Positions 43,519 to 63,804 of a stretch of 64,000 nucleotides of DNA are shown one piece after another. The stretch covers positions 890,001 through 954,000 of the forward strand of contig JBAQNJ010000001.1 in the NCBI GenBank assembly GCA_049303675.1, in the 5' to 3' direction. This DNA comes from Microgenomates group bacterium. GTDB taxonomy: Bacteria > Patescibacteriota > Microgenomatia > UBA12405. Positions within the stretch are counted from its first letter, which is position 1, and every line of letters starts with the position of its first letter. Made by a program: the position numbers and the translations under genes. The notes under the pieces are model-generated. The model was not told the DNA's origin. It saw only the letters and a list, made by a program, of their open reading frames with translations, and did no database searches.

Positions 43519-43519
43519 T

Positions 43520-44134
43520 TTACTCAGTTACATTAATCATTAATTTATTGGCAGAAAAGGTCAGCGATTTACTAGTTCCATTCTCTACAATCATAGTAGC
43601 AGATTCTTTCATTTCTTTACCAGTACTTATTTCAAAACTCGAAGTGCCTGACTTGAGCATTTTTGCCTTGAAACTCAACAAAACTAGTTCATCTTTTGCA
43701 GGTAACAACAACCCTTTTGGACTCGAGATCAAATAATTGGCAACCAAAAGACTTCTCAGTGTACTCACCTTACTAAATGCTGGCTCTGGCAGTTTTTTAT
43801 CAAATTCCAATGTTTTGACATCGACCGCATTTGGATCATATTTTACATACACATTTACCGAATCCAGAGACTTCTCGACTTTACCCAACATTGACACTTT
43901 GACATCAACACTTTCTCCGACTTTGGCATCAGCCACATCACTTGATATCACTATCTGATAATCCTCATCACCAGTCTTTGCCACTGGTTCGCTGGTCACA
44001 ACTGGAGCAACAACAGCCGGTACAACCACCACTGGTTTTTTGTCATTAGCTCTACTAATCAATAGTACACTTTCCGCCAACACAATTACGGCGATTACTG
44101 GAACAAGATATTTTAATAAATTATTTTGATTCAT
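43520..44134 (-). CDS. membrane-anchored cohesin-like domain protein
   Basis: 204 aa; N-terminal TM anchor, PV-rich linker, YQIVISSDVADAKVGESVDVKVSML...VNVYVKYDPNAVDVKTLEF cohesin-like block. Confidence 0.5.
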   Translation of the reverse strand: MNQNNLLKYLVPVIAVIVLAESVLLISRANDKKPVVVVPAVVAPVVTSEPVAKTGDEDYQIVISSDVADAKVGESVDVKVSMLGKVEKSLDSVNVYVKYDPNAVDVKTLEFDKKLPEPAFSKVSTLRSLLVANYLISSPKGLLLPAKDELVLLSFKAKMLKSGTSSFEISTGKEMKESATMIVENGTSKSLTFSANKLMINVTE

Positions 44135-44148
44135 ATATTTTATAACTT

Positions 44149-45528: not shown

Positions 45529-45539
45529 ATTTTTATCCT

Positions 45540-47697: not shown

Positions 47698-49032
47698 ATG
47701 AAAAGCCGCTGGAACCTAGTTAAAACCATACTATTAGTAGTAATGTTACCTTTTGTTATATTGGCCGTCAAAAAAGTCTACGACCTGCGCAAAAGTGCTG
47801 CCGGCACCCCTGCTGACATTGTCATTGATGTCAAAAGTCGTCAGGGACCAGTCCCCTCGACTCTCTGGCAAAATTTATCCCAAGGCGGTGAAGAGCCCCT
47901 CGATATGATCAAGCCAGTGATTGGGCAAATTCGCACCCTCTCCCCCAAGCTAATTCGCATCGACCATATTTTTGATTACTTCAAAGTCGATCAAGGTAAT
48001 GGTAAATATGATTTCTCTCGACTCGACGAAGCCGTCAACAGTATCCTCCTTACCGGTGCTCGTCCTATGCTCTCAATCTCCTACACCCCAGACTCCAAAG
48101 CGCCCAGTGACTGGAATCAATGGTCCGCCCTAGTCCGCGCTACCGCCCGTCATTATTCAATTGATAAAAAAATAGACGGTATCTATTATGAAGTCTGGAA
48201 TGAGCCCGATCTTTTTGGCGGCTGGCATTACGCCCGCGACCCCAATTACTCGACACTATATATATATACTTCTCGAGCCATAGTCGAGGGTGCCTCCGGC
48301 ACCAGCTTTAAAGTCGGTGGCCCCGCCATTACTGCCTACTACAGTAACTGGATCAAATCTCTTTTTGCTACCGCCAAGACTAACCAGCTTCGACTCGATT
48401 TTATATCCTGGCACAAATACAGCAAAGATATCGAAGATTACAATGCTGATTTTGAAAACCTCAACACAATTTTGTCCGATTATCCCCAATATTTTGATAT
48501 CGAACGAATCATCACCGAGGTAGGACCCAATCCCGAGCCCGATGCCTGGTACGACAATAACCTCTCTGGTATTCACCTTATTGCCTTGTCTACCAATTTA
48601 GTAGGTAAAATTCATCGTATCTTTACTTTTGAACCAATCGACGGCCCCACCCCTCGATCTGCTGTCTCCACCGGCTGGGGAATTATCAGCCACGACCTAA
48701 AACCTAAGCCTCGTTTTTACGCCCTCCAGTTTCTCAACCAGCTCACCGGCACTCAATTATCCTCCACTGGCAACGGCTCTTGGGTTAGTAGTCTCGCCTC
48801 GCTCGACAAAAATATTATCAAAATATTAATTGTAAATTATGATAAAAACCTCACTCATGCCGAGACTTTCCCGTTAACTATTCAAAACCTCGAAATAGGC
48901 AACTATCAGATGAAAACTACCAGATATATGGGCAAATCTACCACCAAAAAAATCACCACTACCCATAATTATCGGGAAATGATCTATCTCGAGCCCAACA
49001 CCGCCATTTTGATTGAATTAACCAAAATATAA
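47698..49032 (+). CDS. membrane-anchored clan GH-A glycoside hydrolase (GH39/GH5-like (beta/alpha)8 enzyme)
   Basis: 444 aa; N-terminal TM helix; YEVWNEPD (acid/base Glu in the NEP motif) and IITEVG (nucleophile Glu) at the positions expected for clan GH-A. Confidence 0.6.
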   Translation: MKSRWNLVKTILLVVMLPFVILAVKKVYDLRKSAAGTPADIVIDVKSRQGPVPSTLWQNLSQGGEEPLDMIKPVIGQIRTLSPKLIRIDHIFDYFKVDQGNGKYDFSRLDEAVNSILLTGARPMLSISYTPDSKAPSDWNQWSALVRATARHYSIDKKIDGIYYEVWNEPDLFGGWHYARDPNYSTLYIYTSRAIVEGASGTSFKVGGPAITAYYSNWIKSLFATAKTNQLRLDFISWHKYSKDIEDYNADFENLNTILSDYPQYFDIERIITEVGPNPEPDAWYDNNLSGIHLIALSTNLVGKIHRIFTFEPIDGPTPRSAVSTGWGIISHDLKPKPRFYALQFLNQLTGTQLSSTGNGSWVSSLASLDKNIIKILIVNYDKNLTHAETFPLTIQNLEIGNYQMKTTRYMGKSTTKKITTTHNYREMIYLEPNTAILIELTKI

Positions 49033-52212: not shown

Positions 52213-52308
52213 AGTTTAGTTTTTATTATGCTTTTGGGGTACGATTAACCCAAAACTAAATATAAATTTTATAAATTTTTAATCTAAGGATTATAGCACA
52301 AAACTCTA

Positions 52309-52839
52309 CTATCTTAATCTCTGGACTGTTATCCCTCGCCGAGTCTCGTCCAATCTGACCGTGACTACTGAATTATGCATTACATCCATTCCCTTCGCCT
52401 GAGAAATTCCTTCAATCTGACCACCAAACAATCCATTACATGCCTCAATTAATACTCTATCTGTTATCCCTGGTTTTATATTCAAAACTGCTTCACTACC
52501 TCCCGCTGGGTCCAAAGCTAAAATCTCCACGCATTTGTCTACTTCTTCACTCCACGGGATTAGGTGCGTCATCCCCTCAAAATTAGTCTCCCTAATCAAA
52601 AACCGTTGTTTATGATTTTTTTTATCAAATTCCATTCCCAAGATTGCTGTCGTTGGTTTTCGTTCATCATTTTCATTCAATACCGACATTACCTCACCAG
52701 CGGTAGCCTCTTTAGTTACTTCCAACGCCTCAACTCGCCCTGTTGCCCCGTTCCAAATTGGGGTCACTCGCCCCCGCGCCTCCATATCTGGCCGAATTGA
52801 TCTTTCTACTTCACTTCTTACAAATACAATGCTTTTCAT
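52309..52839 (-). CDS. hypothetical protein
   Basis: 176 aa; no family assigned. Confidence 0.45.
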   Translation of the reverse strand: MKSIVFVRSEVERSIRPDMEARGRVTPIWNGATGRVEALEVTKEATAGEVMSVLNENDERKPTTAILGMEFDKKNHKQRFLIRETNFEGMTHLIPWSEEVDKCVEILALDPAGGSEAVLNIKPGITDRVLIEACNGLFGGQIEGISQAKGMDVMHNSVVTVRLDETRRGITVQRLR

Positions 52840-52867
52840 TTTTATAATTATATTTATTTTAATTTTT

Positions 52868-52937
52868 GACTCACCTGTTGCTTTTCCGCTGAGGGTTCCC
52901 CATATGGGGAACCCTCAATGTTTGCAACAGGTGAGTC
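52868..52937. repeat. nested GC-rich hairpin element (outer GACTCACCTGTTGC/GCAACAGGTGAGTC; inner GAGGGTTCCCC-atat-GGGGAACCCTC)
   Basis: Read directly; the inner core GGTTCCCC..GGGGAACC is shared with the element at 57752-57823. Confidence 0.8.
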
Positions 52938-52979
52938 TAATAAGACAAAACAATAAAGGTTAGGCTCACCTGACAAGGA

Positions 52980-55139
52980 TTATTTGGGCCAAAATTGGGT
53001 TTGATCCCGAACAGAAGATCCGTCAGGATTAATCAACACCAAGTGTAAATGAGTCCAATCACTATCCCCTATGTTTCCCATTAAACAAATGGCCTGTCCC
53101 CAAACTACAACATCACCTTCTGTGACGTAATTCCTATCACAGTGGTATGATGCCTGTTTACGCCCTGAACTATTGGTGATTTCCAGATATGGCGTTCCAT
53201 TTTCATAGACTCCAATTCTAGAAACTGTTCCATTGAGCATAGAAAGTACATCAACTTGGTCTTCAGATGACGGTCGGTGATCTGATTTCCAATAATCCCA
53301 TCCACATTCATTAATGAGATTGCAATGAAAATCATTACCACCAATCGCCGCAGTCCCCATAACATACACCGACGGACCGCCATTCAGCGCAAATCCACAA
53401 AATGCCAATGGATCGGAGCAAAGAATGTTATCAGCAGCCATTACACTAGTGATATCTACTGTCGGTAGTGGTGCCAAATCAACTCCTCCAGCTTGCGCCA
53501 GTATAGACTGATACTGATCCCAAACCGATCCGGACTGATCCCAACCATCATAGGCTGCCGAACCAGGAGTACCATGGTTCCAAACCAGTCCACCATCTTG
53601 GCCAGTGAATCTATTTTGAAAATCCGATTTTGTCGTCTGTTCAAAAAACCGCAGTTTCTTGAACATTCTATATGCCGCCCGAGCAGAATCATGTAGATCC
53701 CACTTGTTCCAACTAGTCTCAGAATAATCCGGCCAAGTTGTCGGCATAAATTGGAATGGTCCCTGCGCTCCAGCAGAAGAAGTGCAAGTGTTAAAATCTG
53801 CTCTAGCACATTCGGAACGCTGTACAGCATACAATAAAGCAGCTTCCCGAGCCGTACCTCCCTCTTCGTTTACCGCCTTCAGAATTGGTTCCCATACTAT
53901 TGGAATTACCACTCCTTCAGGTAATTTTGCCAGTGGTGCACCAGACCAAATTACTGGATCAGGGTTAGGATTTTGCGCCCAGACTGGAATCTCAGGAATA
54001 TCTTCCCCTGAATTAGCCCAGACAATCGGCACCCACATAATCCCAAACGTCACTACGTAGGCTACGTAGCAACCGACTATTAGGACTAGTACCAGTTCCT
54101 TAGTCAAATCTAAAAACCAAGGTATGTGCTTTTCCAATCCAGTGTTCAAAATAAATTTCTTTCCCCAGTCTCGTAGCTTTTGGATGACCCAAATTTGGAC
54201 TGATATACCAGTAAACATCCAAAGTACTTCGTCCTTTAACCAAAAACTTACTATCATTAAAACAACAGTAAGCCACCAATAAGCAACTAAGATTTTAGAC
54301 TTCTTATAGACAGTCTTTTTTCCCAGTTGTTTCTCCAACAAATAAACCTTGCGGTTCATCGACCAAACTTTAACTGCAGCAATTAAAACTAAAATCATTG
54401 CCACCGCAAAGATTACTTTGGTTGTACCAGTCTGGTCTAAGATATTTTTTAGATCAGGACTAGTTTGAGTCGGAATTTCCGACGAGGTTTTAATTACTAC
54501 CCCATTTGGAAGCAGAGTTGACTCCACACTTGGTGTTTGTATTACTTTGGTCTCTCCCTCAATTTCTACCCATATCGTCAGGACATGTTCATTAATCATC
54601 CATCGGATAACGGCATCTTTACTCAGCTCATTTTTCAACTCAAGATCTTGGTCATAGTTACCAGTTGACTCATTTTGGAAAATCGAGTTAGCATAGTGAC
54701 CGTCATAGGGCAGTACAGGAAGCTGAACATGATTATCAGTTGATCTAGTGGACTGTAAGCCATTCATCTCGGCCACGTAGTGGACAATTGAAGCTACGTC
54801 ACAAACTCCCAGCGCAGGCATCCAAGACATATCTTTTTTTTGTAATGTCTTGTATCCGCTATCTGCCATTTGGCCAATTCTAGCACCAAAACTTTGAGAA
54901 ACACCACCAGCTGGAATCACCCATTCATTCTGACCATGGCCCAAATTTTGAAAACCATAAACGATATTATTTTCATAATCTGGCCAATCATAGTAGTCAA
55001 GACGAACAGTACAAACTCCTGACTCATCGCAACTAATCAAGTCTGCTGCCTTCGCCAAATTTACACTCAGCGGGGAAAAACACGACGCCACCAAAACGAA
55101 CATGGTGGTTAAAACGAGAATTAAATTATTTCGTTTCAT
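52980..55139 (-). CDS. multi-domain cell-wall hydrolase: VanW-like domain + TM segments + lytic transglycosylase (SLT) + M23 peptidase
   Basis: Start placed at ATG 55137-55139, preceded by GGAGGTG; signal peptide; VanW-like GVCDVASIVHY..; SLT motif AGAQGPFQFMPTTW; M23 motif GDSDWTHLHLVLINPDG. Confidence 0.7.
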   Translation of the reverse strand: MKRNNLILVLTTMFVLVASCFSPLSVNLAKAADLISCDESGVCTVRLDYYDWPDYENNIVYGFQNLGHGQNEWVIPAGGVSQSFGARIGQMADSGYKTLQKKDMSWMPALGVCDVASIVHYVAEMNGLQSTRSTDNHVQLPVLPYDGHYANSIFQNESTGNYDQDLELKNELSKDAVIRWMINEHVLTIWVEIEGETKVIQTPSVESTLLPNGVVIKTSSEIPTQTSPDLKNILDQTGTTKVIFAVAMILVLIAAVKVWSMNRKVYLLEKQLGKKTVYKKSKILVAYWWLTVVLMIVSFWLKDEVLWMFTGISVQIWVIQKLRDWGKKFILNTGLEKHIPWFLDLTKELVLVLIVGCYVAYVVTFGIMWVPIVWANSGEDIPEIPVWAQNPNPDPVIWSGAPLAKLPEGVVIPIVWEPILKAVNEEGGTAREAALLYAVQRSECARADFNTCTSSAGAQGPFQFMPTTWPDYSETSWNKWDLHDSARAAYRMFKKLRFFEQTTKSDFQNRFTGQDGGLVWNHGTPGSAAYDGWDQSGSVWDQYQSILAQAGGVDLAPLPTVDITSVMAADNILCSDPLAFCGFALNGGPSVYVMGTAAIGGNDFHCNLINECGWDYWKSDHRPSSEDQVDVLSMLNGTVSRIGVYENGTPYLEITNSSGRKQASYHCDRNYVTEGDVVVWGQAICLMGNIGDSDWTHLHLVLINPDGSSVRDQTQFWPK

Positions 55140-55414
55140 ATCACCACCTCCTTGATGGTTGTTTGGGTTTATCCGTCTGCAGGCTGCAGCCGGTTTAAAA
55201 ATTAGGCCCACGGCCTTAAACATGGCTGCACCTCCTTTTCTTTATTTAGGTAGCCAGTCGAATAACCCATAATTAGTTACTCAATTGGCTACCTAAAGTT
55301 TGTTTTGTCTTATTGTTAAAGAGCTAGAGATTAGCTTCGGATGCAAAAATATCCGTCAATCTCCGATAGGATTATATCATAAATACCCTATAATAGCAAA
55401 TTATTTACAAATTT

Positions 55415-57001
55415 CTAAGTATTGTATTGGCTAGATCTTCGGTTCAATACTGTTATAACTTTGTCTGCCAATTCCTCGGATTTATATTTACTAGCTATAA
55501 TATCTCTAATTCTTTGTTTATCCACAGGGGTTGACTTTGCAAATAATTTTAAGTTATTTTCATCAATTCTTGAAAAACCAGCAGACTGTAATATCTCATC
55601 ATCATTTTTTTCCAGCTTATCTACAATAGAAATTGCTTCTTTTACTACCTCGGAATGTCTTGGCAAAACAGACATGTCCCTTCTAGCTAGTGCGATTTCT
55701 TCTAGACAATAAGTTTGTTCATCTTCATCAATATGCGGAATAGCAGCCGTTAATTGTTTTACTCTTTCACCCCCACGTCGGGCACTACCCGTTACCCGTC
55801 CGATACCATTCGCAGCACTTACTACGTCAGTAACCACCATTACATCTTCTTCATTTGCTCCCGAGCGCTGTACTTTTAATGTACCTGGAGCATGTATTTT
55901 TTCTCTGCCTTTTCTAGTCGCAATATTAAATATCCATTCATTAACTGGCCCCAGTTTTAATCTTCTATCTTTGGCTACAGCTTTTAAATTCTCAAAATGA
56001 GGCGCAATATCTGTCTGTGTTAAAAGTTCAGTTATGTTAGAAGCCACAACTTCATCTTCGACTCCAGTTCTCATATGGACTCTGCCATCTTTTGAAATAT
56101 ATAGTTCTTGTCCACCGGCCAATGATTCCATTAATTGAAATCCCTTTGCTCCAAATGCAAACGCGGCCAACTGTTGCAAAAACCCCGATTTGACCAAAGT
56201 AACCCCTTCTTTACATTCAGCAACAGCCACGGTGGGATTACCAATTATACCTTTTAACCTAGTTACTTCTTCTCTCAATAACGCCCTTTGACCAACTTCA
56301 TATACTATTTCTGCCTTTCTTTGGGACAATGTATTTTCAACCTCTTTGCGAATCGATATTTCACTTAAAACTGGCTGCAAAGTTGAAACAATATTTGCCG
56401 CCATCTCCCGTTCAACATCTTGTCTTACTCCAGACCTAAACTGTGCCACTTCAGCCGCCGCATGTACTGTACTAATATTTTTACCCAAGACAGCTTCACC
56501 AGCTCTCATTACTTCCACTGGCCGAGATAGCCTAATTTGGGATTCGTTCATTGTTGCATCAATGGCTGATGCCAATCGATTTCTGGCAATCTGTGCTCTT
56601 TGTTGTGATTCCTTCTCACCACCCCATATTACCCCCGCCACCAGATTTCTAGGCCTCAATGCATCAAGACTCCCCAAAATTCCTTTTGGTGCATTATCAA
56701 ATTCCTTCTGCATTTTATCATCATCCGGCAACAAATTTAAACCATTGGCAAAAAATCTATTTAACAATCCACCCCACAGTGCACTTACCGATCTTTTTTC
56801 CACAGCTTGGGCAAATACAACTACCATGTTTTCCTTTGGTCTTACCGGTACAATGGCTACTCCACCCTTATATTCCTGAACATCATATCCATCAGGAACT
56901 TCCACTACACGAGTTTCAGTCTGATCTTGGACTCGTGGCAATCTATTCATCACCGATCCTTCTCCAAACAAATCTGCTTGCAACTGATCTCTCCATGCCA
57001 T
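55415..57001 (-). CDS. hypothetical large protein
   Basis: 528 aa, no TM, no recognisable domain; visually GC-richer than flanks (GC not computed). Confidence 0.5.
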   Translation of the reverse strand: MAWRDQLQADLFGEGSVMNRLPRVQDQTETRVVEVPDGYDVQEYKGGVAIVPVRPKENMVVVFAQAVEKRSVSALWGGLLNRFFANGLNLLPDDDKMQKEFDNAPKGILGSLDALRPRNLVAGVIWGGEKESQQRAQIARNRLASAIDATMNESQIRLSRPVEVMRAGEAVLGKNISTVHAAAEVAQFRSGVRQDVEREMAANIVSTLQPVLSEISIRKEVENTLSQRKAEIVYEVGQRALLREEVTRLKGIIGNPTVAVAECKEGVTLVKSGFLQQLAAFAFGAKGFQLMESLAGGQELYISKDGRVHMRTGVEDEVVASNITELLTQTDIAPHFENLKAVAKDRRLKLGPVNEWIFNIATRKGREKIHAPGTLKVQRSGANEEDVMVVTDVVSAANGIGRVTGSARRGGERVKQLTAAIPHIDEDEQTYCLEEIALARRDMSVLPRHSEVVKEAISIVDKLEKNDDEILQSAGFSRIDENNLKLFAKSTPVDKQRIRDIIASKYKSEELADKVITVLNRRSSQYNT

Positions 57002-57003
57002 AA

Positions 57004-57711
57004 TTAGTTTTTGTCGTTTAACTCAATAACTGTCGCCCCATTTCTAGCTTTTGATTGTCGTTTTTCTTTCATATTTGCATATACATCCCCACCTTTTTTC
57101 CATACGTACTTTAGCCCTTTTCCTACCTGATTGCTCACTCCCCTACCAATTTCCACAGTCTTTCCGGCAACATAACTACCAACCACCGCAGCAGTCTCCT
57201 TAATTTTTTCATTTCTAGCTTGACGTCTTTCTACTTCTTCCACCGTCACTCCCAAAGCTTCCAGTGGACTGTTCATATCTCTAAAAAATCCTACCCCCGC
57301 TCTTGACATATCCTCAACCATATCAGGTGCAATATTCGCCAAAATTGTCGCTTTAACGACCGAACTAATTGACTCACCTGAATTACCACCTGTCATTACA
57401 ACAACTTGTTCACCTTTTTCATTGGTAGACAAAGCATATCCAACAGGCAAGGAAATATCTGTTACTAGATCACTTAGAGCTCTTCTGATAATTCCAGGAC
57501 GTCCATCACCACTTGTATCATACAAAGCTGGATTACCATCTTTTCCTTCACCAACATGATAAACAATTGGTAGTTCAATATCATTTCTCAATCCATCGAT
57601 TGCCGATTTAATATTTCTCACTACTATTCCATCTTGTTTTGGTTGACCATTATTACCTCCCTCGAGGGGTGTAGTTGCATCTTCCATTAATCGATCAAGC
57701 CAGTTTGGCAT
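57004..57711 (-). CDS. hypothetical protein
   Basis: 235 aa; Gly-rich; stop abuts the start of the upstream ORF. Confidence 0.5.
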   Translation of the reverse strand: MPNWLDRLMEDATTPLEGGNNGQPKQDGIVVRNIKSAIDGLRNDIELPIVYHVGEGKDGNPALYDTSGDGRPGIIRRALSDLVTDISLPVGYALSTNEKGEQVVVMTGGNSGESISSVVKATILANIAPDMVEDMSRAGVGFFRDMNSPLEALGVTVEEVERRQARNEKIKETAAVVGSYVAGKTVEIGRGVSNQVGKGLKYVWKKGGDVYANMKEKRQSKARNGATVIELNDKN

Positions 57712-57751
57712 ATTTTTATAATTTTAATAACTTAATAATTTATTTTTTAAT

Positions 57752-57823
57752 ACCATGGTCCCTTGCTTCCTTGTTTGTGGTTCCCCCTCAGGGGGAACCA
57801 CACATTGGAGCTTGGGACCATGG
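57752..57823. repeat. nested GC-rich hairpin element (outer ACCATGGTCCC/GGGACCATGG; inner GTGGTTCCCCC-tc-AGGGGGAACCAC)
   Basis: Read directly; lies downstream of the 57848..58945 gene and next to an AT-rich run, so it may serve as a terminator. Confidence 0.8.
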
Positions 57824-57847
57824 ATTTGACACCATGGTTGAAAAATA

Positions 57848-58945
57848 TTACTGAGCCGTGCCGGCGAAGACGCAGACATCTTTGTCTCCATACTTCACCA
57901 TCAGCATGTCATTGCTTCTTAAATATGTGGTCCAGGCCGCGCCGACGAACAATTGGACCGAGGTAACTGATGTATTATTAGGAATTGTTCCGTCATGATT
58001 TTGATCAATTCCAACGCAGGTCGGGTTTCCCGCACCATCAGTTGAAGAGGTGTAATACCAAGCACCCTTGTTGTCCGACGTGTCGTTAATCGTAACCAAT
58101 TTATCCCCAGGGTTGGGATCGGGCTGAACATTCACGTTCGGATCGGACTGAGAGGTGGTGTTGGGATCGGGTTGCTTGACGATAGGGTCGGGTTGAGTGG
58201 TTATTGTTGTAACACAACCTTGGCAGATTGTTTCCCACTTACCTGTTCCTGTGAACGAAAAGCCGTTTCGGTCCGCAGATACACCGAGATTGCGGGCAAT
58301 ATTACCATTGACTGAAAATACAATTGGAGTTACCCAACTTTCGTCAAAATTGATGGCAATATCCCAGTTCTCGTTGTCCTTTCCAGCGGTAGCGCAATTC
58401 GAACATTTCCCTGACACAACCCCTTTTATCGGGAACATAGCCGGCCCGAGTGCAGGAGGTGCATTTTGTGGTTGAAGACTTCCACCCATAAGGACAGTGA
58501 AATCCTTCAACCAAGTTGTGCCGGCATCTGAGAGTACTGTAACGGTAACATTCGGCAGCAAACTTTGCTGACCTCCTGTTACATCAGTTCCTGCTGGCGC
58601 CGCATAGGTTGTTCCACCTCCAGAATTACTTGAGGAAGAACTTTCAACCATTGCGTAGCCCGGCAAGCCATTGCAATACTGTCCGCCATATCTTTTACAT
58701 GCCTTGGCCTGTACCGAATCGGCACCGCCAATGGCTGAGTCAGTCCATAATCCGGGTCCATACCGGACGATTAGTGGACCTACGATGAACACGATACCTA
58801 GGGTAAAAAGTACACCCTTTTTGTGAGTGGTAAGCAGGGCCCAAGCGAACATGACAATGGCCAGTACCACAAACCAACCCACGAGCGGAGCGATGCTATT
58901 TGAAGCACCTTCCCATCCTGCTCTTAAACTTCCAATTAGATCCAT
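57848..58945 (-). CDS. hypothetical membrane-anchored protein with QPDP repeats
   Basis: 365 aa; two N-terminal TM helices; Gly/Ser/Thr-rich extracytoplasmic part; QPDPIVKQPDPNTTSQSDPNVNVQPDPNPGD; visually GC-richer than flanks (GC not computed). Confidence 0.55.
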   Translation of the reverse strand: MDLIGSLRAGWEGASNSIAPLVGWFVVLAIVMFAWALLTTHKKGVLFTLGIVFIVGPLIVRYGPGLWTDSAIGGADSVQAKACKRYGGQYCNGLPGYAMVESSSSSNSGGGTTYAAPAGTDVTGGQQSLLPNVTVTVLSDAGTTWLKDFTVLMGGSLQPQNAPPALGPAMFPIKGVVSGKCSNCATAGKDNENWDIAINFDESWVTPIVFSVNGNIARNLGVSADRNGFSFTGTGKWETICQGCVTTITTQPDPIVKQPDPNTTSQSDPNVNVQPDPNPGDKLVTINDTSDNKGAWYYTSSTDGAGNPTCVGIDQNHDGTIPNNTSVTSVQLFVGAAWTTYLRSNDMLMVKYGDKDVCVFAGTAQ

Positions 58946-59261
58946 GATCCTATCTCCTTTTCTATTTTTTGAAAAACCACAATTTTACTTCAATTACACA
59001 ACCCAAGCACCCAATCTCCCGATAGCTATCGGGGGGCTCAGTGCTTGAGTCGTGTATCCATAGTGTCAAATTTTTAAAGTGCCTTGAGGTTTTACCCTCA
59101 ATTTACTAAAAAAGCCCTCAAATATTGCCAATTAAATGGCGTTATTTAGGACTCTGTGATGTTCTACTTTGCAGCGCATTGCTACATTTATTAACATGAA
59201 CGTTTATACACCTCTGTTACACATTTGTCAATAATATAAGATATTCCAACCTCAACCTGAC

Positions 59262-59486
59262 TCAAAGCAGTTTATTTGTCTCCGAATCTATCACCACATC
59301 TAGATATTTTCCTTTGCCATTTTGGGGCAATCTCGAAATAATCGGTCGATTATTTTTTTCTTTATCATCATCACTAGGTTGAATTTCCGGCCCTACAAAT
59401 TGTTCGGGAGTCCACTTTTTTGGATTCCGAGCATAATCCCGTGGGATTTGTTGCTTGATTTTCTTCAACACATCTTCATTTGGCAT
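59262..59486 (-). CDS. hypothetical small protein
   Basis: 74 aa, Lys/Asp-rich. Confidence 0.3.
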   Translation of the reverse strand: MPNEDVLKKIKQQIPRDYARNPKKWTPEQFVGPEIQPSDDDKEKNNRPIISRLPQNGKGKYLDVVIDSETNKLL

Positions 59487-59670
59487 TATTTGTAGTTGGC
59501 AACACTATCAACTTACTTACACCGTTCCCCTTATCTTCTTGCCTTTTCAAGTGTTCTTCATGAGTTAGTTGTGGCTGTGGTTTTTTCTTCTCCGGCTTTC
59601 TCACCTCAACCGGCGCACCAAACATATTTTCTTGTACCAATTTTGCCTTGTCTTGTTGTTCTCCTGCCAT
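59476..59670 (-). CDS. hypothetical small protein
   Basis: 64 aa; overlaps the next ORF by 11 nt. Confidence 0.3.
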   Translation of the reverse strand: MAGEQQDKAKLVQENMFGAPVEVRKPEKKKPQPQLTHEEHLKRQEDKGNGVSKLIVLPTTNNAK

Positions 59671-59707
59671 AATTTATTTTACTCCTCTCTTAGTCTAATT
59701 GACAATT

Positions 59708-59941
59708 TTATCCAAATATTTTTTTCATTAATGATGGAGAACGCAAAATTGGCTCATCATAATTAGTCACCACTTCAATTCTTTTTATACTTTTACTATT
59801 TACCAGTGCCTCCAAACAGCTATCACAGACATTTATCCTAGCCATTCTGTTTGGTCCTGCCGAGAACATCACCCTCTTTGTCGAGGGCTTGTTGCAATGC
59901 AGATACCAGAACAAAAATTTTTCACTTGGTACATCACACAT
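59708..59941 (-). CDS. hypothetical small Cys-containing protein
   Basis: 77 aa; HC...C..C spacing suggests a zinc ribbon; AATTACGAATT-type motif directly upstream. Confidence 0.4.
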   Translation of the reverse strand: MCDVPSEKFLFWYLHCNKPSTKRVMFSAGPNRMARINVCDSCLEALVNSKSIKRIEVVTNYDEPILRSPSLMKKIFG

Positions 59942-59984
59942 ATTTTGTAATTCGTAATTAGTAATTCGTAATTATTTTAATTAA
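59942..59984. promoter_or_regulatory. AATTCGTAATT tandem motif directly upstream of the 59708..59941 start
   Basis: attttgtaattcgtaattagtaattcgtaattattttaattaa. Confidence 0.35.
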
Positions 59985-60079
59985 CCTGCAAATATCGTTT
60001 TGTCCGCCCGAGGCGGCTTATTTTTCTTGTTTTCTCGTGTTGTGGCAGACCCTTGCGGGTCCGCCACTTCTTTACACGA

Positions 60080-60247
60080 TTACGCCTTCGGTTTTTCAAC
60101 AACCGTCTTTACTACGACAGTTGTTGCAGCCGGTTGTCGAGTGACCTTATTAAGAGAAACACCTTCATTTGGTCGAATGTTCTTGCCAGGAACTTTTTGA
60201 GAAACGACAACAAGTTTCTCAGTACCTTTCTGAGGAATCGGAGTCAT
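60080..60247 (-). CDS. hypothetical small protein (below the 60-aa track cutoff)
   Basis: 55-aa ORF MTPIPQKGTEKLVVVSQKVPGK... found by manual translation; starts 2 nt after the stop of 60250..60465, with AAGGTGGA 5 nt upstream; followed by stem-loops at 60040-60066 and 60015-60030. Confidence 0.3.
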   Translation of the reverse strand: MTPIPQKGTEKLVVVSQKVPGKNIRPNEGVSLNKVTRQPAATTVVVKTVVEKPKA

Positions 60248-60249
60248 TT

Positions 60250-60465
60250 CTATCCACCTTGTTGAGTGGGCTGGGGGCGGATGGCGGTTACATCAGCAGT
60301 TGACTTTCCAGCCTTCGGAGTGGCCAGATGGGTCTTCGTCCCAGGGGGAGTTGTTGCAACCCCAGGAACATTGGCCGGCACGCCCGCCTTCAAAAATTCA
60401 TTGAGCGTCATATATTGCGGATGAACATTCACTGGTACTATGGTCTTACCATTCACAGTTGGCAT
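60250..60465 (-). CDS. hypothetical small Pro/Thr/Gly-rich protein
   Basis: 71 aa; similar in style to the downstream 55-aa ORF. Confidence 0.3.
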   Translation of the reverse strand: MPTVNGKTIVPVNVHPQYMTLNEFLKAGVPANVPGVATTPPGTKTHLATPKAGKSTADVTAIRPQPTQQGG

Positions 60466-60870
60466 GATTTTTTACCTTATCCTTTTTTCAATATAGTTTT
60501 TTTTCGACGACGACGGGAAAAAATTATTTTTCCTTCAATAGGGCCTCCTTTTTCTATTTTTCACTTCCAATGAGTGAAATTTAATCAACCCGCCTTAGGC
60601 GGACTAATTAAATTTCACTCAAAAGTGCCTCAGATAAGTTACGAGGCAGTCCGAACGCTTTCGGACAATTAAAATAAAATGGGGGTTTACGATACTTGCA
60701 GGTTGTTAGAGAACCTTCTCTACAACCTCCGCTTCTCAGTTTCCATACCGCAACGGTGTGTCGCGGACTGCTGTTTCGAATTAGGGCTAGAATAGCACAA
60801 CTTATCCAAAAAATCTACACACATATTACTCATATAATTTTAGTAGGAGTTAGATAACAAATTTGCATCC

Positions 60871-61236
60871 CTATCTTGGCAACTTTATTTTGATCACCTG
60901 ATACACATTCAACATTTTATCCAGCATACTAGCTTCTTCAGTTCCCATATTTTGACTTTTTCCAGCGTATTTTTGGGCCAATAAATTTTCGGCACTGGTT
61001 CCCTGTCTCACTTGTATCGAGTGCCCTAGTCTACTCATAATCTCATGATTTACTCCCCCTTGGGACTCGAATGCTGCCAATTCTGCCCGTGTCCCCATCA
61101 CATCAGCCAATAATTCTTTTGGTATCTGTGGGATAATTCCACTTCCAAATTTTTCCAGCTCCCGTCTCCACTTTCTCACCCCTTTTTGATGATGTCTATC
61201 TGGTGCATCCTTAAATCTATTTGCCTGATTGCTCAT
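60871..61236 (-). CDS. hypothetical protein
   Basis: 121 aa; basic N-terminus. Confidence 0.4.
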   Translation of the reverse strand: MSNQANRFKDAPDRHHQKGVRKWRRELEKFGSGIIPQIPKELLADVMGTRAELAAFESQGGVNHEIMSRLGHSIQVRQGTSAENLLAQKYAGKSQNMGTEEASMLDKMLNVYQVIKIKLPR

Positions 61237-61320
61237 AGCCCCATCATATCCTCAATTATTTTTTTATAAATCCCTATCATCTTTTTTTTAAAAGATTTAT
61301 AATTAAAACTCACCTCCTCT

Positions 61321-61350
61321 AATTCCTAATTCTTAATTCCTAATTTTTAA
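61321..61350. promoter_or_regulatory. AATTCCTAATT tandem motif between divergent genes
   Basis: aattcctaattcttaattcctaatttttaatt; a variant of the AATTCGTAATT family. Confidence 0.3.
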
Positions 61351-63540
61351 TTGTATACTTATCCTATGGCTGACTCTGTGTATAAATTAATGGAAATCCG
61401 TCTTCCCCAAGACAATGAAACTACCCTCGAGTCAATGTCTTCACTTTTGGCAAATTTTACCCAAAGTTCTCGACAATCTTTTTGGCACCGTCTTATTGGT
61501 AAAAAGCCAACTATCGCTTCTCTGGAAATCGCTCTCTACGACTCCCAAGTCCACTTTTTAGTCGCCACTCCCACCGATACTGCCGACTTCTTCCGTTCCC
61601 AAATCCTCGCCCAATACCCCTACGCCGTCATCAAAGAACCCGCTGATTACTTGGTCCCCCTTCTTCAAGGGGGAATGCCCGAAGGGCAAGGGGGTTTTGT
61701 CTTTTCTCAATTAGCCCTCGCCCGTCCCTACTCCTATCCCCTCAAAACCGCCAAAGATTTCAAGGATACCGATCCCCTCTCTTCTGTCCTCGCCCCACTC
61801 TCAAGGAGCAACAATCCCGCCGATTTTTTCCTCTACCAAATAATAATTGGCAACGCCCCCCGCAATTGGCAGGGTAGCATTATGTCGATTATCCAAAATG
61901 GAATTTTGGTCGACAAAGAAAAAGGCTTTCGTCAGGCCCATCCTGACAAAATGGTTTTCGAGACCAAAATTCAATTTCCGGGCCTATTAACCCAAATTAA
62001 TTTACTCAGTAACAATCCTAGCCTCATCTCCTCAGTCTCTTCATCGTTTGGAATTTATACCAGTCCTAGGGGCAATTTTGTCCGTGCCATCTCTCCGAGT
62101 TTTTTTACTAAGAAAAAAATTCTTAATTCAATCCTTAACCGAGAAATAAACGTCAACACCCAGGTCCTCAACACCGAAGAAATGTCTGTCCTCTGGCATT
62201 TTCCCAACCAGCTCACCAAGCTACCCAACATCGCTTGGGGCAAAAAACTCTATGCCGACCCTCCCGAAAATCTACCTATTGCCGATGGCGCCACCGACGA
62301 ACAAAAGCAAGCCATCACCTTTTTTGCCAAAGCCGAGTTTCGCAACAAAGATACTATTTTTGGTATCAAGCAGGGCGAAGACCGTCGTCGCCATACCTAC
62401 ATTATCGGAAAATCGGGTACTGGTAAAACTACTCTGATTGCCAACATGGCCATCGATGATATTCGCAAGGGCCGCGGCGTGGCTATTATCGATCCTCACG
62501 GAGACCTCTGCCAGACCATTCTCGACTATATTCCGTCATCTCGGATCAATGATTGCTGTTACTTCAACCCCGCCGACCCCGAATATGTCTATCCCCTCAA
62601 CGTCTTAGAAGCCCAAAATGAATCTCAAAAAGAATTAGTAGCCTCGGGAGTTATCTCCATTTTCAAAAAATTATACGGCAATGTTTCTTGGGGTCCCCGT
62701 CTCGAGCATATCCTCCGTAATGCCGTCCTGACTCTAGTCAACACCCCCGGCTCAGACATGACCCACATTGTTGAAATCCTTACCCACAAAGAATATCGTC
62801 ACAAAGTAATTGCTGGACTCCAAAATCAAACCTTACGCAATTTCTGGGTCAACGAATTTGAGAAAATGGATGACAAATTTCAAAATGAAGCCATCGCCCC
62901 AATTCTCAACAAAGTTGGTCAATTCATCAGTAGTACCAATATTAGGAACACTATCGCCCATCCCCAGTCGAAGGTCAATATTCAGGAAATTATGGATGGC
63001 AAAAAAATCCTCATCGCTGACCTCTCTACCGGCAAATTGGGCGAAGATAATTCGGCACTACTGGGAGCAATGTTGATCACCCAAATTCAATTATCCGCCA
63101 TGAATCGGGTATTTCAGTCCCAAGAGCAGAGATCAGATTTTTATCTCTACGTCGACGAATTTCAAAATTTTGCCACCGAGGCCTTTATCAAAATCCTCTC
63201 CGAAGCCCGCAAATTTAAACTAAATTTGATTATTGCCAATCAATACATGAATCAACTTGATCGGACTATTCAGGATGCCATTTTTGGCAACATTGGTTCT
63301 ATGATGTCCTTTGTCGTGGGCAATCAGGATGCTTTTATCCTCCAAAAAGAATTTGGACCCAAATTTCCTGCTGATGATTTGGTTAAAATCGGCAAATATC
63401 AAATGATTTGCAAGCTCAGTATCGATTCGGAGACTACCCAGCCCTTCTATGCCACTTCCCTGCCGCCCCTCGATTGCAAAAACCAACAACGCGACAAACT
63501 AATCCGTATTTCGCAAGAGAGATGGGGAAAACGAAAATAG
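61351..63540 (+). CDS. VirD4/TraG/TraD-like type IV coupling-protein-family ATPase
   Basis: 729 aa; Walker A IIGKSGTGKTTLIANM, then AIIDPHGDL, Walker B-like FYLYVDEFQNF; the track start is a TTG, and an ATG (MADSVYK) lies at 61366. Confidence 0.65.
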   Translation: MYTYPMADSVYKLMEIRLPQDNETTLESMSSLLANFTQSSRQSFWHRLIGKKPTIASLEIALYDSQVHFLVATPTDTADFFRSQILAQYPYAVIKEPADYLVPLLQGGMPEGQGGFVFSQLALARPYSYPLKTAKDFKDTDPLSSVLAPLSRSNNPADFFLYQIIIGNAPRNWQGSIMSIIQNGILVDKEKGFRQAHPDKMVFETKIQFPGLLTQINLLSNNPSLISSVSSSFGIYTSPRGNFVRAISPSFFTKKKILNSILNREINVNTQVLNTEEMSVLWHFPNQLTKLPNIAWGKKLYADPPENLPIADGATDEQKQAITFFAKAEFRNKDTIFGIKQGEDRRRHTYIIGKSGTGKTTLIANMAIDDIRKGRGVAIIDPHGDLCQTILDYIPSSRINDCCYFNPADPEYVYPLNVLEAQNESQKELVASGVISIFKKLYGNVSWGPRLEHILRNAVLTLVNTPGSDMTHIVEILTHKEYRHKVIAGLQNQTLRNFWVNEFEKMDDKFQNEAIAPILNKVGQFISSTNIRNTIAHPQSKVNIQEIMDGKKILIADLSTGKLGEDNSALLGAMLITQIQLSAMNRVFQSQEQRSDFYLYVDEFQNFATEAFIKILSEARKFKLNLIIANQYMNQLDRTIQDAIFGNIGSMMSFVVGNQDAFILQKEFGPKFPADDLVKIGKYQMICKLSIDSETTQPFYATSLPPLDCKNQQRDKLIRISQERWGKRK

Positions 63541-63576: not shown

Positions 63577-63804
63577 ATGAACAAAAATGGTCCTGTCACC
63601 GAATGGCTACACAAAAACGCCACCACATTACTCACCCGTGAAAATATTATTCTTGGTCGAGTCAGAATATTTAAAGCTCCGGAAGAGGCCAATCTCGGCT
63701 GTGTAGAATGTGCCGCTACTCTGGATGAATGTAAAGGAAAATCGAAAAAAGATGGATTTCAGAAGTGTTTTCGTGCTGATTTAGATACTGACGATTCCAC
63801 ATAG
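63577..63804 (+). CDS. hypothetical small Cys-containing protein
   Basis: 75 aa. Confidence 0.3.
   Translation: MNKNGPVTEWLHKNATTLLTRENIILGRVRIFKAPEEANLGCVECAATLDECKGKSKKDGFQKCFRADLDTDDST

Follow-up and report, generated by a model that had tools for sequence, protein, structure and literature searches.

A probable peptidoglycan-hydrolase operon in the variable slot beside a core VirD4-like ATPase gene of Microgenomatia

The window, the whole 64,000-nucleotide stretch analysed here, comes from a Shapirobacteria-like ultrasmall (CPR) bacterium of the Microgenomatia. Towards its right-hand end lies a block of 10.5 kb made up of two parts with different evolutionary histories, a core gene for a VirD4-like ATPase and a lineage-restricted operon in the slot between rpsB and that gene. 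We consider it probable that the operon is a fast-evolving one for envelope proteins and a peptidoglycan hydrolase, and that the block is neither a T4SS fragment nor a recognisable mobile element. The open reading frames listed in a sequence-only reading of the same DNA are all present, and agree with the NCBI gene calls for GCA_049287145.1, contig JBAQFH010000001.1 (Table 1).

Table 1. Features of the block, with positions in the window.
Feature	Position	Strand	Remarks
176-aa soluble protein	52309..52839	-	ORF and NCBI call; last cassette gene, beside rpsB
747-aa polytopic peptidoglycan hydrolase	52980..55223	-	ORF and NCBI call; Pfam M23; TM 34-52, 270-288, 311-329, 367-385
528-aa soluble, mostly helical protein	55415..57001	-	Very small family
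235-aa soluble protein	57004..57711	-	2 nt from 528-aa gene
365-aa protein	57848..58945	-	Two N-terminal TM helices (21-39, 44-62), Cys-containing domain, QPDP repeats
Motif 1, conserved leader RNA	58990..59231	-	Promoter, hairpins, terminator-like hairpin
Motif 1 promoter	59231-59226; 59208-59203	-	TTGACA, 17 nt, TATAAA
Motif 1 5' domain	59205-59103	-	Nested hairpin and long hairpin with U-tract ending ~59108
Motif 1 3' part		-	Small hairpin, conserved single-stranded stretch, long 3' hairpin (~59053-58995)
Small basic ORF string	59262..60465	-	Four of five called by NCBI
74-aa ORF	59262-59486	-	NCBI call
64-aa ORF	59476-59670	-	NCBI call; 11-nt overlap with 74-aa ORF
77-aa ORF	59708-59941	-	NCBI call; CxxC zinc-ribbon-like
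55-aa ORF, doubtful	60080-60247	-	Absent from NCBI calls; without homologue
71-aa ORF	60250-60465	-	NCBI call
Non-coding stretch with motif 2	60466..60870	-	405 nt
25-bp-arm hairpin	60571-60621	-	In 405-nt stretch
Two short hairpins	~60666-60626	-	In 405-nt stretch
Motif 2 core	60698-60782	-	AATTCGAAACAGCAG, hairpin, GGAAACTGAGAA, long hairpin, TAACAACCTGC
121-aa basic protein	60871..61236	-	ORF and NCBI call; first gene of divergent operon, 129 nt from ATPase start
724-aa soluble ATPase	61366..63540	+	N-terminal DUF8128 and TrwB/HerA-type P-loop domain (Pfam DUF8128, TrwB_AAD_bind, DUF87)
75-aa ORF	63577..63804	+	NCBI call; first of three small variable ORFs between ATPase and topA

A core ATPase gene and a variable slot

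The GKSGTGKT and DEFQ motifs on which the sequence-only reading had based a VirD4-like assignment are present in the ATPase, which scores above the Pfam thresholds for TrwB_AAD_bind (30.9 versus 20.5 bits) and DUF87 (30.4 versus 23.2 bits). No TM helix was predicted, and the ATPase is a soluble member of the FtsK-HerA/VirD4 superfamily. By sequence its closest solved relatives in the PDB are the coupling proteins TrwB (E = 4.8e-4) and DotL (E = 0.056), matched over only ~56 residues. Their membrane anchor is missing from the ATPase. The PADLOC models matched were mad8 (52.6 bits), HerA and DndH, the higher score being that on mad8, a HerA-like model of a defence system. Foldseek with a poor structural model (pLDDT 53, TM 0.25) returned TrwK/VirB4 first, followed by TrwB and Cag-beta.

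Homologues of the ATPase number more than 5000, the best 120 at 73-100% identity. It is present in all 80 species-level relatives fetched (62-89% identity), and topA adjoins it downstream in 73 of the 80, at distances of 7 to 2782 bp. The neighbourhood reads rseP-frr-tsf-rpsB, then the slot, then ATPase-topA-PBP2-mreB, with PBP2, mreB and rseP all within 10 kb. The ATPase is thus a core gene with a fixed rpsB-topA place in Shapirobacteria-like Microgenomatia, outside the variable cassette, and its conservation and fixed position indicate that it is not cargo of an element. Patescibacteria carry 5,713 VirD4-like homologues in 2,918 genomes, only 148 of them near virB4, and possible exaptation has been raised for these proteins (PMC12102498); the present ATPase is one of many such ‘orphan’ genes.

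The left border of the block is formed, as had been proposed, by the core genes rpsB-tsf-frr. A system continuing past the right window edge was not found: three small ORFs are followed by topA, PBP2, mreB, a Wzy_C/TPR protein, def and fmt. The second and third of these ORFs lie beyond the window, and no homologue of the first, of 75 aa, was found among the 80 relatives.

The slot (52213-61365, ~9 kb) turns over rapidly between genomes. Its length in 50 relatives ranges from ~0 to 8.65 kb, being below 0.7 kb in 22 and above 1.5 kb in 18. Toxin-antitoxin and abortive-infection genes occupy it elsewhere. In the window it holds an operon that keeps its order, is restricted in distribution and diverges rapidly. 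The same ordered cassette of small basic ORFs, a 2-TM surface protein, a ~235-aa and a ~528-aa protein and a polytopic hydrolase occurs in six genomes (the window, L088, L089, L090, L091 and L041), always in this slot and only beside the ATPase gene. The operon runs away from the ATPase gene in the order 121-aa gene, motif 2, three to four small basic ORFs, motif 1, 2-TM protein gene, 235-aa and 528-aa genes, hydrolase gene and 176-aa gene. Cassette proteins are 22-48% identical between genomes, against 75-91% for the flanking core proteins, and tblastn of 80 relatives gave no match for them except for the hydrolase and the 365-aa protein. Most cassette-less relatives nevertheless have the ATPase, equally conserved.

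The evidence supports a VirD4-like ATPase with a variable accessory block beside it, but not a T4SS fragment. The 10 kb past the window contain core genes only, without VirB4, VirB6, VirB8-11, relaxase or integrase; the Pfam lists for ~4-64 kb of the window contain none of these either, and the ~30 kb around the ATPase lack VirB4, VirB3, VirB6, VirB8 and relaxase. Contrary to the earlier judgement by eye, the block is not GC-richer (0.413 versus 0.403 for the window), the 365-aa gene alone being an outlier (0.49), and its codon usage falls inside the range of core-gene blocks. No att repeats, adjacent tRNA or integrase were found for the 9-kb slot, no capsid, terminase, portal, relaxase or VirB4 in the block by Pfam and PHROG, and no match to cassette proteins or motifs in IMG/VR, INPHARED or PLSDB.

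With no integrase, att repeats, composition shift or phage or plasmid relatives found, the block is not a recognisable integrated element either. Where the sequence-only reading had named observations that would speak against a transfer element, flanks and composition did so and conservation was split: the ATPase is conserved at a fixed site, whereas only some genomes have the other 9 kb, for which ‘variable island’ is the right description.

Two conserved non-coding motifs

Both non-coding motifs are better conserved than the cassette proteins, and G-U pairs place both on the operon strand. Motif 1 has a column identity of 72% across five genomes in which the flanking proteins reach only 22-48%, and the 365-aa gene is the first gene after it in six genomes. 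RNAalifold found compensatory changes at 19 of 60 pairs. Moreover, in an alignment of 12 sequences 90.9% of cells were paired, with both sides changed in 14 of 23 pairs; this was reached by none of 500 shuffles, and slid controls gave 37-48%. A covariance model returned 12 strong and 4 weak matches among 86 sources, one per locus and all in operon orientation. The fold z was -6.0, and no Rfam family matched.

The hairpin-dense non-coding stretch reported earlier was confirmed, and its predicted fold is much stronger than that of shuffled sequences (z = -5.15). The motif 2 core within it is preceded by TGnTATTCT, a -10-like box. Motif 2 was found by nhmmer in 10 of 80 relatives and in L089-L091, and by an exact-pattern scan in 12 metagenome contigs. 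Seven of these contigs have enough flank to show its surroundings, and in every one it is found upstream of the ATPase gene in divergent orientation, at roughly 240-900 bp (subtracted coordinates). Motif 2 accompanies the ATPase also where the cassette is absent. The core helices are invariant and hence show no covariation, for which reason motif 2 may work at the level of DNA and not of RNA. The long hairpin differs between sequences in its inner part, which still folds as a hairpin. There was no Rfam family match.

Since the cassette is found only next to the ATPase gene, and motif 2 stays with that gene even without the cassette, their adjacency could mean a functional partnership, which a division into two separate parts underrates. 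In its fullest form this would be a minimal VirB4-less translocation apparatus, T4SS-like in a broad sense, in which the ATPase docks on the hydrolase and the 2-TM protein, the complex moves DNA or protein across the monoderm envelope, and motif 2 is a cis-acting recognition site or regulator. We regard such an apparatus as quite improbable. The divergent arrangement at 129 nt, the position of motif 2 beside the ATPase gene in all contexts with flank, and the coupling proteins and TrwK/VirB4 at the head of the PDB and Foldseek matches are all consistent with it. Hydrolases with two domains and a membrane anchor serve in monoderm T4SSs (PMC12102498), and comparison of the present enzyme with them is reasonable as an analogy. 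However, the VirB components and relaxase are missing around the ATPase, which is equally conserved in most relatives without the cassette, has no TM anchor like that of coupling proteins, gives higher scores with the defence-type models mad8, HerA and DndH and has a poor structural model.

The hydrolase and the other cassette proteins

The hydrolase, described previously as a 719-aa protein, begins 28 residues further upstream in the called gene, the earlier start being internal Met29. It consists of an N-terminal signal/anchor helix, an extracellular VanW-like region, three to four central TM helices, an SLT-like motif and a C-terminal M23 domain. The SLT-type motif AGAQGPFQFMPTTW and the M23 HLH motif of the earlier description are present, but VanW (14.3 versus 27 bits) and SLT_2 (12.4 versus 24.3 bits) remain under the Pfam threshold, and Peptidase_M23 passes narrowly (30.0 versus 28.7 bits). 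In homologues SLT is above threshold and VanW reaches 24 bits. The first zinc-ligand motif of M23 looks non-canonical by eye. The homologues that occupy this position in L088-L091 and L041 have retained the TM scaffold and carry Polysacc_deac_1, Amidase_2, VanW, M23, SLT or, in L041, a weak phage-tail-lysozyme domain; catalytic domains are thus swapped between close relatives on a conserved TM scaffold.

PHROG matches of the hydrolase are to endolysin, lytic tail protein and tape-measure families, through lysin domains only. These matches, the lysozyme domain in L041, the small zinc-ribbon ORFs (such ORFs are common in phages), the presence/absence polymorphism and the defence genes found in the slot elsewhere would suit a decayed mobile element. 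On this reading a prophage or integrative element would have entered the slot in an ancestor and then been stripped of its integrase and of its structural or transfer genes, and the hydrolase would go back to a tail lysin, a tape-measure protein or an enzyme like VirB1. This origin is very unlikely, given the lack of integration signs, of phage and transfer genes and of database matches described above. Furthermore, the cassette was always found complete, with its gene order unchanged and at one chromosomal site, despite its low protein identity; this indicates that selection has maintained it through a long vertical descent.

Absence of detectable domains from the 528-aa and 235-aa proteins was borne out, no family or PDB relative being found for either. 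The 528-aa family has only 12 cluster representatives at E <= 1e-3 among 1.84 billion, and in each of the five genomes where the surroundings of a member were read (L088, L089, L090, L091, L041) its gene is flanked by the ~235-aa gene and the hydrolase gene in the same slot. The AF2 model of the 528-aa protein has a pLDDT of 40. Homologues of the 235-aa protein (230-242 aa, 23-40% identity) hold the same position in L088, L089 and L090, and a 171-aa protein does so in L091. For the 176-aa protein, which matched no Pfam, NCBIfam, PHROG or PADLOC family, the sole homologue seen, with 179 aa and 31% identity, is encoded at the corresponding place in L088. The two N-terminal hydrophobic helices and QPDP repeats noted earlier in the 365-aa protein are present; its family has six members with invariant cysteines, and the Cys/QPDP domain is probably extracellular, making this a surface protein.

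The string of small ORFs was likewise found, including the overlapping 64/74-aa pair, except that the 55-aa ORF is doubtful. The small ORFs have net positive charge, no TM and no detectable homologues; L088-L091 and L046 have three to four small ORFs at the same position, several with CxxC pairs. The 121-aa protein has a weak relative in L101 (29% identity) and is tied by position only to a 109-155-aa CxxC family in L089-L091, L046, L008 and L024. No family, PDB relative or usable model was obtained for the 528-, 235-, 365-, 176- and 121-aa proteins.

Proposed wall remodelling at the cell surface

A housekeeping role in wall growth or division, with an autolysin module acting on the cell's own sacculus and divergence reflecting weak constraint, is unlikely, though it has points in its favour: PBP2, mreB and rseP are near, the cell's own wall is the easiest target for a membrane-tethered enzyme, and polysaccharide deacetylases (PgdA-type), whose domains occur in hydrolase homologues, usually modify the cell's own peptidoglycan. 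However, the cassette is missing from most relatives that retain PBP2 and mreB, and the swapping of catalytic domains between close relatives speaks against such a role. Moreover, the cassette proteins diverge far faster than their core neighbours and yet remain intact and ordered, which is unusual for housekeeping machinery.

We infer instead that the cassette serves regulated, surface-exposed wall remodelling. The motif 1 promoter would drive transcription, and the motif 1 terminator would stop it or permit read-through, the hairpin and its U-tract being the two features that suggest attenuation; no antiterminator or ligand was identified for motif 1. Read-through would lead to a membrane complex containing the hydrolase, with its central helices in the membrane and two sets of muralytic domains displayed outside the cell, and with the 2-TM 365-aa protein as its surface partner. 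The hydrolase would cut or modify peptidoglycan locally, either in the own wall or at a site of host-cell contact. Host walls or phages may exert diversifying pressure on the cell surface, which would fit both the catalytic-domain swaps and protein identities far below those of the flanking genes.

Two parts with different histories

The block between rpsB and the right edge of the window has two parts with different histories: an ATPase gene and, between it and rpsB, a slot that is a hot spot of gene turnover, occupied here by a cassette of about 9 kb. All the open reading frames named in the sequence-only reading are present, in agreement with the NCBI gene calls, which were compared on the Microgenomates group bacterium MAG GCA_049287145.1 (JBAQFH010000001.1, a 998-kb contig). 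GC content is about 40%, and the core genes around the block include gyrBA, dnaX, recR, tRNA synthetases and ribosomal protein genes. The part at 52980-58945 had looked GC-richer by eye than the neighbouring ribosomal-protein genes; the GC fraction of the block proved to be 0.413 against 0.403, which is not GC-rich, and its codon-usage distance (0.322) falls within the range of core blocks, for which the mean is 0.289 and the maximum 0.423. A recent foreign origin by composition was ruled out. GC skew in 1-kb bins is negative in all but two bins, and the cumulative skew falls steadily to -14.8 with no switch within the window.

The ATPase gene is called by NCBI from an ATG, for a protein of 724 aa (a TTG start would give 729 aa), under the name ‘type IV secretion system DNA-binding domain-containing protein’. 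The N-terminal ∼300 residues correspond to Pfam DUF8128, and the C-terminal half contains TrwB_AAD_bind (30.9 bits, cut-off 20.5) and DUF87 (30.4 bits, cut-off 23.2), with Walker A (GKSGTGKT) and Walker B-like (VDEFQ) motifs visible in the sequence. By HerA/DUF87-type models the protein is assigned to the FtsK-HerA superfamily of P-loop proteins, and it would work as a hexameric translocase. NCBIfam TraD and VirD4-like models scored far under their cut-offs (46.9 versus 366 and 28.5 versus 250, respectively), and no hydrophobic segment that could serve as an N-terminal transmembrane anchor was found in the ATPase or in three orthologues. Among PDB sequences, matches were confined to the P-loop region (TrwB, E 4.8e-4 over only 56 residues; DotL, 0.056), and a profile of the ATPase retrieved nothing useful. 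A structural model from a 17-sequence alignment was poor (pLDDT 53), so that its Foldseek order of TrwK/VirB4, then TrwB and Cag-beta, is weak.

More than 5000 ATPase homologues are present in the database; the best 120 clusters are 73–100% identical, their named sources being Shapirobacteria, Microgenomates and Patescibacteria. When one genome from each GTDB species was scanned, 322 stretches encoding a relative came up, of which the best 80 were used. Within these best 80 of 322, the ATPase is 62–89% identical, topA follows 7–2782 bp downstream in 73 (mostly then PBP2 and mreB) and rpsB lies upstream in 50 (mostly with tsf, frr and rseP). Identity and synteny conserved in this way across 80 species fit a chromosomal gene passed on vertically and do not fit element cargo. 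A system running past the window edge had been envisaged; the contig continues instead into small ORFs, topA, a 164-aa gene, PBP2, mreB, a gene for a Wzy_C/TPR protein, def and fmt. The small ORFs between the ATPase gene and topA are three (75, 97 and 107 aa), none with a homologue in the best 80 of 322 relatives; the corresponding spacer of one relative, L003, is included in the table of features.

Anything from about 0 to 8.65 kb separates rpsB from the ATPase gene; among 50 genomes, the gap is below 0.7 kb in 22 and above 1.5 kb in 18. Presence/absence polymorphism, raised for the block as a whole, applies to the cassette and its slot and does not extend to the ATPase, conserved and syntenic in the best 80 of 322 relatives. 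When the cassette proteins were searched by tblastn against these 80 loci, four weak matches were obtained for the hydrolase, one for the 365-aa protein and none for the remainder. The full ordered cassette occurs in one of the 80 species representatives (L041) and on four other contigs (L088–L091). In relatives the slot also carries AbiEii and a partner gene, HEPN/MNT and Gp49/HTH_3 genes, AAA_14/DUF4143 ATPases and many proteins that belong to no family. The toxin-antitoxin or abortive-infection-type and AAA_14/DUF4143 genes indicate that the slot is a general hot spot for accessory genes. On L089, a 91-aa gene and a PIN-domain gene (toxin-antitoxin-like) lie between tsf and frr, a second small insertion point of the same core neighbourhood.

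Positions of the features in the window and in loci of relatives (L-numbers)
Feature	Source	Position	Strand
Cassette	Window	52213-61365	-
Hydrolase gene	Window	52980-55223	-
Motif 1 (leader)	Window	58990-59231	
Non-coding stretch with motif 2	Window	60466-60870	
Motif 2 core	Window	60698-60782	
ATPase gene	Window	61366-63540	+
First ORF of ATPase-topA spacer	Window	63577-63804	+
ATPase-topA spacer	L003	10299-11278	
Paired CxxC small ORF	Window	59708-59941	-
Paired CxxC small ORF	L089	4114-4302	
Paired CxxC small ORF	L090	7556-7798	
Paired CxxC small ORF	L091	4872-5126	
Paired CxxC small ORF	L046	7844-8098	
Extra 232-aa polytopic protein	L090	16588-17286	
Extra 232-aa polytopic protein	L091	12822-13520	
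Toxin-antitoxin/abortive-infection-type or paired AAA_14/DUF4143 slot genes	L026	6619-7862	
Same	L063	5206-7161	
Same	L088	886-2982	
Same	L090	17501-18208	
Same	L008	4895-8500	
tsf-frr insertion	L089	12766-13429	
Partial copies of motif 1 5′ part	L012	3970-4040; 4631-4697	
192-aa ORF, faint Y1 transposase (IS200-like) match	Window	9927-10505	-
311-aa tyrosine recombinase	Window	16472-17407	-
Run of large proteins without Pfam family	Window	42170-47564	-
Glycoside hydrolase family 39 protein	Window	47698-49032	+

An ordered, fast-evolving envelope operon

The cassette is an ordered, fast-evolving envelope operon. A word-indexed search returned one homologue of its 528-aa protein, and HMMER, run exhaustively on 1.84 billion proteins, returned 12 representatives; an 8-sequence profile run on a third database recovered only the same two proteins. 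All members with readable context (L041 and L088–L091) lie in the same slot in identical gene order, the ATPase gene being off the L088 contig, which ends before it. A 501-aa protein at the equal position in L063 was rejected as a relative (hhalign probability 0.8%).

Gene order of the cassette, from the ATPase gene to rpsB
Order	Feature	Size
1	ATPase, divergent	
2	Protein	∼121-155 aa
3	Non-coding	∼400-630 nt
4	Small ORFs, three or four	
5	Non-coding	∼318 nt
6	2-TM protein	∼321-365 aa
7	Protein	∼144-242 aa
8	Protein	∼514-538 aa
9	Large hydrolase	623-1199 aa
10	Protein	∼176-252 aa
11	rpsB	

Between cassette genomes, flanking proteins are 75–91% identical, cassette proteins 22–48%, and the small ORFs are unrecognisable. 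That the genes stay intact and ordered despite this divergence argues for a cassette that is functional under rapid change, and the rival reading of the block as a decayed mobile element is very improbable. Apart from the lysin domains of the hydrolase, no cassette protein matched Pfam, NCBIfam, PADLOC, PHROGs or PDB sequences, and profiles of the 528-, 365- and 235-aa families gave nothing useful against PDB sequences; an AF2 model of the 528-aa protein from a two-sequence alignment reached a pLDDT of 40, too low to be of use. The 365-aa family has two N-terminal helices followed by a part with invariant cysteines, together suggesting an extracellular domain.

The small cassette ORFs have no transmembrane helix. 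Paired, zinc-ribbon-like CxxC motifs are present in one of them in the window and in counterparts on four relatives' loci, and CxxC pairs recur in the ∼113–144-aa and ∼145-aa families of relatives, a hint that these may be small nucleic-acid-binding regulators. The possibility that the 71- and 55-aa ORFs are split halves of the ∼113–144-aa zinc-ribbon family was ruled out. Two cassette-bearing relatives, L090 and L091, have between cassette and rpsB an additional gene that the window lacks; its 232-aa product is predicted to have five or six transmembrane helices.

The large hydrolase had been read as combining VanW, SLT and M23 domains, and of these only M23 passed, narrowly (Peptidase_M23, 30.0 versus 28.7 bits). 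VanW (14.3 versus 27 bits; the family's best, on L089, being 24.0) and SLT_2 (12.4 bits versus a cut-off of 24.3) fell below threshold. Of the M23 zinc-ligand motifs (HxxxD, HxH), the second is present as HLH and the first, DHRPSSED, is by eye non-canonical; homologues score 37–80 bits for M23. For SLT, where a catalytic Glu followed by AxGxxQ...P.T was sought, the motif SEC...AGAQGPFQFMPTTW is directly visible, and the homologue at the relative's locus L046 passes SLT (28.7 versus 21.3). The hydrolase is the only polytopic protein in the window's cassette, and the family shares a scaffold of an N-terminal helix and 3–4 central helices on which the catalytic modules vary.

Catalytic modules of the hydrolase in the window and in relatives
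Source	Modules
Window	SLT-like + M23
L088, L090	Polysacc_deac_1 + M23
L089	Amidase_2 + VanW
L091	Amidase_2 + M23
L041	M23 + weak phage-tail-lysozyme
L046	M23 + SLT

The operon would build a surface-exposed wall-remodelling module, with an enzyme repertoire that adapts to changing substrates or enemies. A rival reading, in which the muralytic modules make up an autolysin module for the organism's own wall, is considered unlikely.

Left of the block in the window, a further run of genes encodes large proteins without a Pfam family (674, 459 and 204 aa), then a 229-aa protein with a Cohesin domain and a 220-aa Pur_ac_phosph_N protein, and may specify a surface complex. The 444-aa glycoside hydrolase family 39 protein adjoins rseP.

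Two conserved non-coding elements

The two non-coding gaps of the cassette keep their position and, unexpectedly, their sequence is conserved as well. The 365-aa gene is preceded by motif 1, whose column identity is 72% in five genomes. Across 12 sequences, the TTGA of a TTGACA (-35) box and a TGTATA ahead of and into a TATAAA (-10) box are invariant. Downstream follow a nested hairpin and then a long hairpin with a terminal U-tract, at the 3′ end of which TTG.GG..TT.TTT is again invariant. The region folds far better than its shuffles (z = -6.0); in the 12 sequences 90.9% of cells are paired, against 37–48% when the partners are slid, and 14 of 23 pairs are altered on both sides, the observed values being reached by 0 of 500 shuffles. 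These comparative data mark motif 1 as a structured RNA, and the frequent G-U pairs place it on the strand of the operon. A covariance model gave 12 strong and 4 weak matches in 86 sources, one per locus and all in the operon orientation, followed in relatives by a 2-TM gene, by the hydrolase directly or by ORFs of unknown function. Cassette genomes carry an additional hairpin after motif 1, with compensatory changes. An outer helix, GGTGT/GCACC, was rejected (overlap of the 5′ strand with the -10 box; no covariation). In one relative, L012, the 5′ part of motif 1 appears to be present twice, incomplete each time, with the two copies ∼650 bp apart.

With its predicted terminator, motif 1 may work as an attenuator-type leader. 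The ydaO c-di-AMP riboswitch is a terminator-containing 5′ leader of the type that controls wall-hydrolase genes. By analogy, motif 1 would resemble attenuator and riboswitch leaders in being structured, in its terminator-like hairpin and in its place directly upstream of an envelope/hydrolase operon; it matches neither the sequence nor the structure of ydaO or of any Rfam family. At the Rfam gathering score only three tRNAs were found in the window, and matches across both motifs (58800–61450) were at chance level (E up to 5).

The hairpin-dense stretch noted in the sequence-only reading is real: the motif-2 region folds far better than shuffled sequences (z = -5.2). Its core is nearly invariant and consists of AATTCGAAACAGCAG, a hairpin, GGAAACAGAGAA, a long hairpin and TAACAACCTGC. 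Motif 2 is present in 10 of the best 80 of 322 relatives, in L089–L091 and on 12 metagenome contigs; wherever the flank exists it lies in front of the ATPase gene in divergent orientation, at a distance of ∼240–900 bp (read from coordinates), cassette present or not. Motif 2 is thus a conserved element tied to the ATPase gene. The invariance of the core helices leaves a structure unproven; in favour of an RNA are only the inner hairpin, which varies, and a few G-U pairs. A role as rpsB leader, considered because motif 2 points to rpsB in cassette-less genomes, was not adopted, as nhmmer did not find the motif in the many genomes with a short rpsB-ATPase gap. The patterns of both motifs are absent from IMG/VR.

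Among known elements, clt beside traB on Streptomyces plasmids is a cis-acting site next to a DNA-translocase gene. Motif 2 would resemble clt and oriT sites in its invariance, its GAAACAG-like repeated words, its hairpins and its position beside an FtsK-HerA/VirD4-type ATPase gene; unlike them it has an upstream -10-like box and G-U pairs, which favour a transcript, and it is chromosomal, with no transfer genes.

Relation to secretion, defence and phage systems

The flanks had been expected to contain further T4SS genes. VirB4 (CagE_TrbE_VirB) and TrsD-type genes are absent from the Pfam lists, which take in all called genes from ∼4 kb in the window up to 10 kb past its end; VirB3, VirB6 and VirB8-like channel components gave no Pfam or NCBIfam match, very divergent analogues being possible, and the gene lists of block and flanks contain no relaxase. 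The ATPase shows no linkage to relaxase or T4SS genes, its neighbours in most relatives being rpsB and topA. The integrase looked for was likewise missing between 52.2 and 65 kb. The nearest tyrosine recombinase, which is the sole recombinase noted within the window (Phage_int_SAM_1 + Phage_integrase; probably XerC/D-like), is encoded just downstream of gyrB-gyrA. Candidate att sites were rejected as short, chance-like repeats of 71–88% identity, and there is no tRNA target at the block edges, the tRNAs lying at 4, 22 and 27 kb.

VirB1-like hydrolases of monoderm conjugation systems are believed to open the peptidoglycan layer at the site of a trans-envelope structure. The VirB1-like PrgK (pCF10), TraG (pIP501), CwlT (ICEBs1) and TcpG combine a membrane anchor with lytic-transglycosylase-type and peptidase modules (PMC12102498), as the cassette hydrolase is predicted to do. 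The hydrolase differs from these enzymes in its 3–4 extra central transmembrane helices with muralytic domains on both sides of them, in the swapping of modules between close relatives and in having no adjacent VirB4 or VirB6; against plasmid-encoded proteins it has no BLAST-level similarity. A T4SS-like machine lacking VirB4, to which such an enzyme would belong, is quite unlikely.

A survey (Quinonero-Coronel et al., 2025; PMC12102498) counted 5,713 VirD4-like homologues in 2,918 Patescibacteria genomes, and just 148 of these homologues lay close to virB4; it noted that the S. epibionticum homologue is non-essential and that exaptation is possible. Like these orphans, the ATPase is a VirD4/TrwB-like P-loop protein encoded far from virB4 and without a relaxase on a CPR chromosome; the DUF8128 N-domain, the missing transmembrane anchor, the rpsB|ATPase-topA synteny, the variable slot and the non-coding elements are absent from the published description (PMC12102498).

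The P-loop of the ATPase scores best on HerA/DUF87-type defence and DNA-processing ATPases (mad8 of MADS, HerA partners and DndH), the PADLOC models giving 52.6 bits for mad8, 30.2 for HerA and 23.5 for DndH. Defence genes are typically accessory; unlike these, the ATPase is 62–89% identical and syntenic in 80 species, with no partner genes of those systems nearby.

Phage tail lysins and tape-measure proteins share with the hydrolase SLT-like and M23 modules and hydrophobic segments in one large protein, and its PHROG matches are to endolysin, lytic tail protein and tape-measure families, in the lysin modules only. Unlike phage lysins, it has an N-terminal signal/anchor helix, no other phage genes around it and no match in phage collections. 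A prophage or plasmid origin was rejected, PHROGs yielding lysin domains only and IMG/VR, INPHARED and PLSDB no matches; the hydrolase is without a match in all three, and the 528-aa family in IMG/VR.

Cassette, motif 2 and ATPase are constantly adjacent, which may reflect a functional partnership. It is decidedly unlikely that the three form an undescribed, CPR-specific envelope-crossing machine without VirB4 and VirB6. In such a machine the ATPase would power the passage of DNA or protein along a channel around the polytopic muralytic protein. Motif 2 would be its riboregulator or cis-acting recognition site, while diversity among hosts or phages would be mirrored in the variable parts.

The ATPase bears a T4SS-type name, yet the protein is, at least in this lineage, encoded by a fixed chromosomal gene by topA with no T4SS partners nearby, so that genes of this kind cannot safely be taken to indicate secretion or conjugation. 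In Patescibacteria there is a search for inducible control elements (PMC11665869), and the two non-coding elements, better conserved than the surrounding proteins, are rare candidate regulatory elements in this group. With its near-orphan, fast-evolving envelope proteins and a hydrolase of exchangeable catalytic modules, the slot, in which genes turn over rapidly, is a concrete candidate locus of host or phage interaction, for organisms thought to live attached to other cells.
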